From assembly GCF_003334815.1 (NCBI RefSeq), contig NZ_QOWO01000104.1: a stretch of DNA of 1,195 bases, one strand, 5' to 3'. A program made the translations under genes and the position numbers. The notes below the pieces were generated by a model. The model was not told where the DNA came from. It did no database searches and was given only the letters and a program-made list of their open reading frames with translations. The DNA is from Escherichia coli. Its GTDB lineage: Bacteria; Pseudomonadota; Gammaproteobacteria; Enterobacterales; Enterobacteriaceae. This document shows positions 40 through 150 of this stretch, piece after piece. Position 1 is the stretch's first letter; every line of letters begins with the position of its first letter.

Positions 40-150
40 TCAGTCATTTCATTTCTTCATGTTTGAGCCGATTTTTTCTCCCGTAAATGCCTTGAATCAG
101 CCTATTTAGACCGTTTCTTCGCCATTTAAGGCGTTATCCCCAGTTTTTAG
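40..150. promoter_or_regulatory. Subterminal phased T-tract region downstream of insH: putative intrinsically bent DNA with a possible IHF-like site, matching the IS5 end implicated in activating adjacent host promoters
   Basis: Seen in sequence: short T-runs at about 47-49, 52-54, 62-64, 72-77 and again 115-117, 124-126, 135-137, 143-147, i.e. about 10-bp helical phasing. A near-match to the IHF consensus WATCARNNNNTTR lies at 105-117 (aatcagcctattt; last position mismatched). Established knowledge: the transposase-distal end of IS5 has been reported to contain a permanent bend and an IHF site required for IS5-mediated activation of neighbouring operons (for example glpFK, flhDC, bgl). The exact site positions are my inference. 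Confidence 0.4.

Follow-up and report, generated by a model that had tools for sequence, protein, structure and literature searches.

The phased T-runs of an ISKpn26-type Escherichia coli element are the bent 3' end of IS5, with predicted curvature conserved among IS5-group relatives

Introduction

The closest described system is the IB ('internal bend') region of the insertion sequence IS5 of Escherichia coli K-12, which comprises the 3'-terminal 177 bp of the element and is necessary and sufficient to activate PglpFK in crp cells (PMC2753651). IB alone has no promoter activity (Zhang & Saier 2009, PMC2753651), and activation is lost with a 5-bp spacer and kept with a 10-bp spacer (PMC2753651). 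Deletion of ihfA, or mutation of the TCAA/TT of the IHF site, costs 50-60% of PglpFK activation (PMC2753651). Mutations in A-tracts 1-3 cause a dramatic drop, 85% of the activation remains when A-tracts 4-8 are mutated, and the ihfA deletion together with the tract 1-3 mutations abolishes it (PMC2753651). The region also activates Plac 8-fold from -126.5 in an engineered lac construct (PMC2753651). According to Zhang & Saier, no function of IB was known before their work (PMC2753651). [quoted passage not shown]

Sharp subterminal bends beside a transposase-binding terminus are likewise found at IHF-folded transposon ends (the outside end of Tn10/IS10, the IS1 ends and Mu), where transposition is IHF-dependent. 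Upstream curved or UP-like A-tract activators of bacterial promoters (Bracco et al. 1989; Aiyar et al. 1998, both cited in PMC2753651) are also phased and activate in a helical-phase-dependent manner. The tracts of IS5 differ in that their distance upstream of +1 is about 170-275 bp, far past an UP element, as they lie 47-148 bp into the IS and its end sits at -126.5, and alpha-CTD is apparently dispensable for IB activation according to preliminary evidence of the authors (PMC2753651). A further close relative is ISKpn26, an IS5 isoform known for disruption of mgrB in Klebsiella.

Here we describe a window of E. coli DNA (the whole stretch analysed, 1,195 bp) that combines features of the last-named element and of K-12 IS5. 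It shares positions 151-1195 and the transposase with ISKpn26, and it has the A-tracts, the IHF core and the position beside the terminal repeat of the K-12 IB region. An initial annotation had pointed to T-runs spaced by about 10 bp between about 47 and 147, and had read them as an intrinsically curved IS5 end with an IHF site that could activate adjacent promoters. The phased T-runs are indeed the already characterised bent end of IS5; the observation is correct and already known, since its interpretation is essentially the textbook account of IS5. New here is that the predicted bend, rather than the IHF core, is conserved and phase-locked to the terminus in IS5-group relatives.

Results

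The whole window is one complete 1195-bp insertion sequence of the IS5 type, lying in reverse orientation. The terminal inverted repeats are 16-bp and imperfect, with the pattern GGAAGGTGCGAA(T/C)AAG. The transposase-distal repeat (3', IRR) occupies positions 1-16 (GGAAGGTGCGAATAAG) and agrees at 15 of 16 positions with the reverse complement of the transposase-proximal repeat (5', IRL) at 1180-1195. The length is in line with the size of about 1.2 kb that is typical of the IS5 group. The transposase gene, ins5A (ISKpn26 allele), is a 326 aa open reading frame at 147-1127 on the minus strand, with the stop codon at 147-149. Its product matches NCBIfam NF033581 ('IS5 family transposase') with 366.8 bits (cutoff 140), as well as Pfam PF01609 (DDE_Tnp_1, 8e-35) and PF05598 (DUF772, 6e-21), identifying it as an IS5-type DDE transposase; RefSeq names it 'IS5-like element ISKpn26 family transposase' (WP_000019440.1). 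Megablast against complete E. coli genomes found 100% identical copies of the element in many chromosomes and plasmids, and copies with at least 99% identity in at least 381 E. coli records. In five of six identical copies, 4-bp target duplications (TTAG, TTAA or CTAA; YTAR type) abut positions 1 and 1195. Thus, the window stops exactly at the IS termini, without flanking DNA.

Region 40-150 lies within a 146-bp non-coding stretch 3' of the ins5A stop codon, and belongs to the conventional 3' or right end of IS5. Its designation as the transposase-distal end was right, given the position of the stop codon on the minus strand, and the assignment of the element to IS5 was borne out by its IS5-type features and by positions 1-183, which are 100% identical to K-12 IS5.

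Transposases with 99-100% identity are also present in assemblies of Streptomyces morookaense, Methylobacillus rhizosphaerae and 'Rappaport israeli' (locus L007). These taxa are unrelated and one of the copies lies at the end of a contig, which points to contamination or to a very recent transfer.

Compared with IS5A of K-12 MG1655 (NC_000913 273955-275149), the window has 70 differences in 1195 positions, all of which fall in 184-1195. Because 1-183 matches K-12 IS5 base for base, the whole IB region as defined in PMC2753651 is present unchanged (1-177, minus strand; 177/177 identical), but in the window it is joined to an ISKpn26-type transposase gene and 5' end. The comparison with genuine ISKpn26 (1196 bp, from Klebsiella michiganensis; locus L004) gives the opposite picture, with one difference in 151-1195 and about 39 differences or indels in 18-150. 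The element is not a full-length ISKpn26, as it has 1195 rather than 1196 bp and a diverged 3' non-coding end, and only 151-1195 is ISKpn26-like. The alignments show it to be a recombinant of an ISKpn26 body and an IS5 3' end, with the breakpoint in the interval 151-183 next to the stop codon. Across the 3' non-coding end, the two parents, IS5 and ISKpn26, have diverged by about 27%. Purifying selection was considered as the reason for the identity of 1-183 to K-12 IS5 and was rejected, because the ISKpn26 comparison shows a recombination mosaic; IB is perfectly identical to that of K-12 by recombination. The 'Rappaport israeli' copy is a second mosaic with another breakpoint, and locus L013 is a mosaic at the 5' end.

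A separate block of variation lies between IRL and the ATG at 1132-1161, where IS5 and ISKpn26 have 18 differences in about 30 bp, compared with about 5% in the coding region. This hypervariable block resembles a swapped cassette, and in L013 an IS5-type protein is combined with the ISKpn26-type block.

The 3' end of genuine ISKpn26 (the last 147 nt of L004 and L003) differs from that of the window in several respects. Its IHF core reads TCGA where IS5 has TCAA; of the IS5 tracts, those closest to the terminus are lost, and A7, A6 and A3T4 tracts are gained. It is nonetheless predicted to be more curved, with a ratio of end-to-end distance to contour length of 0.63-0.69 against 0.76-0.83 in the window.

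We identified eight T-runs of at least three bases on the plus strand (47-49, 52-54, 62-64, 72-77, 105-107, 114-116, 125-127 and 144-148), which are A-tracts on the transposase-sense strand. The run centres at 53, 63, 74.5, 106, 115, 126 and 146 follow a lattice of about 10.3-10.4 bp to within about 1 bp; 47-49 alone departs from it, by half a turn. For TT in 40-150, the periodogram has its maximum at 10.25 bp. We compared the power in a preset band of 10-11 bp with that of 2000 dinucleotide-preserving shuffles, of which 1.45% reached the observed value for TT (p 0.015) and 0.05% that for AA+TT (p 0.0005). The phasing signal is at least five-fold above that of the rest of the element past about 160, and no other 111-bp window comes near it. 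The region is AT-rich (40-47% GC), and the phasing could in principle be a chance property of such a non-coding tail, without structural or functional meaning. The TT signal agrees with this when the period is left free over 5-16 bp (p=0.10), but its strength in the preset band argues against it, and we regard the approximately 10-bp phasing as real.

Three dinucleotide wedge models (Bolshoy-Trifonov, De Santis and AA-wedge) served to predict curvature. They were validated on synthetic controls, in which A6 tracts in phase (every 10.5 bp) reached 24-29 degrees per turn, against less than 3.5 for A6 tracts spaced by 15 bp. In all three models, the most curved 180-bp fragment of the element falls in 1-220. 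This fragment has an end-to-end/contour ratio of 0.74-0.83; shuffles give 0.93-0.95 (p 0.05 to <0.002), and internal fragments of the element have a median of 0.96-0.98. The predicted net deflection of the axis from 40 to 155 is 83-104 degrees. A ratio of 0.85 or less was found in only about 1% of 350 windows of host DNA flanking related elements, and AT-matched windows behave likewise. At its local peak the curvature reaches 14.6-16.8 degrees per turn, a value within the range of the shuffles (p 0.1-0.2), as a chance origin would also predict; the overall ratio, lying beyond the 1st percentile of host DNA with AT-matched windows included, is not what it would predict. Since the ratio over the whole fragment is extreme and the local peak ordinary, the models describe a sustained in-phase bend and not a sharp kink. 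The intrinsic curvature that had been proposed for this end is thus supported by prediction.

We numbered the tracts by counting eight in the window and taking the five 'upstream' tracts of PMC2753651 as 4-8. Tracts 1-3 would then be the promoter-proximal T-runs within 47-64 (plus strand; 47-49, 52-54 and 62-64), and tracts 4-8 those within 72-148 (plus strand; 72-77 to 144-148). When tracts 4-8 are mutated in silico, the ratio climbs to 0.96-0.98 from its original 0.76-0.83 in all three wedge models, whereas mutation of tracts 1-3 moves it only to 0.79-0.88. In the models, therefore, tracts 4-8 hold most of the global static bend and tracts 1-3 contribute little.

The published IS5 IHF site was mapped onto the window from its positions relative to PglpFK (-221 to -218 and -213 to -212, with the IS/PglpFK junction at -126.5). 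It falls at 85-97 on the minus strand (ATTCAAGGCATTT), with TCAA at 95-92 and TT at 87-86, and has two mismatches to the IHF consensus WATCAANNNNTTR. With at most one mismatch, the consensus has no match in 40-150. With up to two mismatches there are 8 matches in the whole element against 8.1 expected, and 4 in 40-150 against 1.43 expected (p=0.056). An IHF site standing above background, as the initial annotation had anticipated, was thus not recovered by the consensus scan, which gives chance-level matches in the element. Because the sequence matches at chance level, the case for IHF rests on the genetics of the identical sequence. Of the reported bend, IHF site and promoter activation at this IS5 end, the account as a whole is supported, as the sequence is the same and the genetics of PMC2753651 apply to it; the part that fails is recognition of the IHF core from sequence.

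The best consensus match of the element is at its other end (TATCAGGAACTTG, 1171-1183, plus strand), where it overlaps IRL (1180-1195). It has one mismatch and is the sole match at that threshold. This match is kept in all enterobacterial copies of IS5 and ISKpn26 and in one Shewanella relative, and is absent from more distant relatives.

To place the bent end within the family, we compared 80 loci (one genome per species) with transposases 57-100% identical to the query. The 3' ends were anchored on the inverted repeat motif; eight of 76 loci lacked a recognisable 3' repeat and were dropped, leaving 53 distinct 3' ends. In nearly all of these, the terminal 180 bp are predicted to be the most curved fragment of their own element (z -2 to -10 relative to dinucleotide shuffles). 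Terminus-phased curvature is kept down to about 64% transposase identity and is weaker down to 57%; it is weak in the group with 57-59% identity (GC-rich Burkholderiales). Occupancy by AA in the relatives' 3' ends peaks at 146, 127, 116, 106, 85, 76, 54 and 25 bp from the terminus, and its periodogram has a peak at 10.0-10.5 bp. In 26 representatives, ungapped alignment from the end gives no more than random identity outside the inverted repeat (median 0.28), yet the approximately 10.2-bp period has a concentrated phase relative to the terminus, with R=0.76-0.78 against 0.18-0.38 at control periods; as the relatives share ancestry, the conservation statistics, these R values included, are not true probabilities. 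IHF cores with at most one mismatch are not conserved at either end among the relatives. By these predictions, it is the bend that is conserved and phase-locked to the terminus in IS5-group relatives, and not the IHF core.

The recurrence of the same terminus-anchored lattice in diverged relatives also bears on a chance origin of the phasing, as does the published mutagenesis of the tracts, which alters promoter activity (PMC2753651). Mutagenesis and conservation together already refute the chance reading, which we consider extremely improbable.

In Oceanospirillales relatives (L033, L038, L039, L043, L047 and others), an inverted repeat follows the stop codon at about 95-130 nt from the 3' terminus (e.g., ctgcatgccgg-AAAA-tcggcatgcag, with an A-tract in the loop). 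By eye, its pairing seems to be kept despite changes in the sequence.

Three of the six identical copies have the bent end 129-257 bp upstream of a divergently transcribed gene. The distance is 152 bp to the start codon of hybO (E. coli 14EC001, CP024127), 129 bp to lgoD (AR_0069, CP020055) and 257 bp to a prophage gene. The hybO and lgoD copies have the geometry needed for activation of the IB type. The lgoD copy is bordered by CAAG and TGAG rather than by a target duplication, which points to rearrangement between copies. One of the remaining three breaks up a transporter gene; the other two are turned toward a gene end or another IS.

Scans of the whole window identified no sigma-70 promoter, and Rfam gave no match at E up to 1. 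Readings of the region as an outward promoter or a strong terminator were rejected, as there is no sigma-70 match, terminator matches are near chance and IB is promoterless in PMC2753651.

Discussion

We explain region 40-150 as the core of IB, which would activate promoters as IS5 does when suitably placed and whose bend would be primarily architectural. Taken jointly, this explanation is one in which we have high confidence; for the architectural part by itself our confidence is much lower, and we put it a little short of an even chance. Mechanistically, eight A-tracts one helical turn apart would add their small deflections to a static bend of about 90 degrees, with the weak IHF site (85-97, minus strand) at the middle of the array. 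Where a suitable promoter lies next to this end and in the correct helical register (about -126.5), the promoter-proximal A-tracts and IHF would act additively, as published for this very sequence, and the native promoter would become active without Crp. Because the stretch equals K-12 IS5 base for base, the window should behave as IS5 does. We infer by analogy that this particular copy may act likewise, depending on its flanks.

The array could also be there mainly as a mobile promoter activator, in which the bend and IHF loop upstream DNA onto RNA polymerase. At glpFK, IB is necessary and sufficient and its effect depends on helical phase; at both glpFK and flhDC, IS5 always has the bent end toward the promoter (PMC2753651); and half of the identical copies sampled here have that end upstream of a divergent gene. 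At fucAO, however, IS5 likewise has its bent end toward the operon, yet IB alone is without effect (PMC11894529), and the operon is driven by a fusion promoter located at the 5' end of IS5, with read-through across the element (PMC11894529). For bgl, activation depends on neither position nor orientation, and H-NS takes part in it (PMC2753651). Thus, activation via this end is established for glpFK and the engineered lac construct only and is not general, because IB is ineffective at fucAO and bgl acts through H-NS. The other copies sampled disrupt genes or face gene ends. Curvature is also kept in marine and soil bacterial relatives where the IHF core is not, and conservation across the family is unlikely to stem from selection for a by-product that is rare and confined to few host loci.

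The tracts themselves argue in the same direction. In the published experiments it is the promoter-proximal tracts (by our numbering, 47-64) and IHF that matter, and not the bulk of the array. The statement that the bend activates the promoter would therefore be at best incomplete, because tracts 4-8 carry the modelled bend and tracts 1-3 carry the activation. As the bend-carrying tracts 4-8 are nearly dispensable for activation, we infer that activation is not the reason for the array. An array serving mainly as a promoter activator thus seems unlikely to us.

H-NS prefers curved AT-rich DNA, and the curved tract might instead be a platform for a protein of this type, or an insulator or terminator against inward transcription, by which antisense ins5CB would be controlled or ins5A protected. 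The ins5CB operon lies on the plus strand just inside the array, and read-in transcription from outside shifts transposition about 2-fold. A terminator-like feature pointing inward is present at 33-45 (plus strand), with a short palindrome (GGCTGACTCAGTC) and then a stretch rich in T (ATTTCATTTC); it would stop transcription entering toward ins5CB. But the hairpin is weak (five pairs), terminator-like matches number 3 against 1.4 expected, and the window holds no sigma-70-like promoter anywhere. A strict, terminus-anchored phasing of about 10 bp is, moreover, unnecessary for termination, and H-NS is not required at glpFK according to Zhang & Saier (PMC2753651). We hold this role to be very unlikely.

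Transposition offers a different setting for the bend. Deletion of ihfA lowers IS5 insertion about 10-fold at bgl, glpFK, fucAO and flhDC in a DNA-binding-dependent manner (PMC11043490), and the activity of the IS5 transposase promoter is unchanged in the ihfA deletion (PMC11043490). An architectural role in transposition is the most economical reading, because it accommodates the mismatch between tracts, the conservation across the family, the effect of IHF on insertion and the lack of any previously known function of IB. The bend would be a feature of the element itself, maintained by selection within the IS5 group; it would set the orientation of the subterminal arm with respect to the IRR to which transposase is bound, and promoter activation would be its occasional by-product. 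From the modelling and by analogy with other transposon ends, we propose this architectural role of the bend in transposition only tentatively. Relative to the ends of Tn10, IS1 and Mu, the IS5 group would differ in that its conserved feature is an intrinsic A-tract bend over about 100 bp, lacking a strong IHF core, and in that the bend is at one end only.

In a fuller form, the bent end may be an ancestral cis-acting module of the IS5 group, phase-locked to the 3' terminus, which brings the subterminal arm onto the end occupied by transposase and serves transposition, as a counterpart of the IHF fold of Tn10 and IS1 that is largely independent of protein. The activation seen at glpFK would then be incidental, drawing on no more than the terminus-proximal tracts and a lineage-specific weak IHF site, and the 3' end would be exchangeable between isoforms. 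This is a possibility that we take seriously while rating it as somewhat less than evenly balanced.

Spacing of T-runs read by naked eye correctly placed a functional DNA-bending element. The widespread E. coli element that RefSeq labels as 'ISKpn26 family' carries the activating end of IS5, whereas genuine ISKpn26 is without the TCAA, and activation of the glpFK type known from K-12 IS5 should therefore apply to this element. For the IS5 group, the mismatch between the modelled bend and the activating tracts, together with the conservation of the predicted curvature, would provide a testable reason, a role in transposing the element, for the existence of IB.
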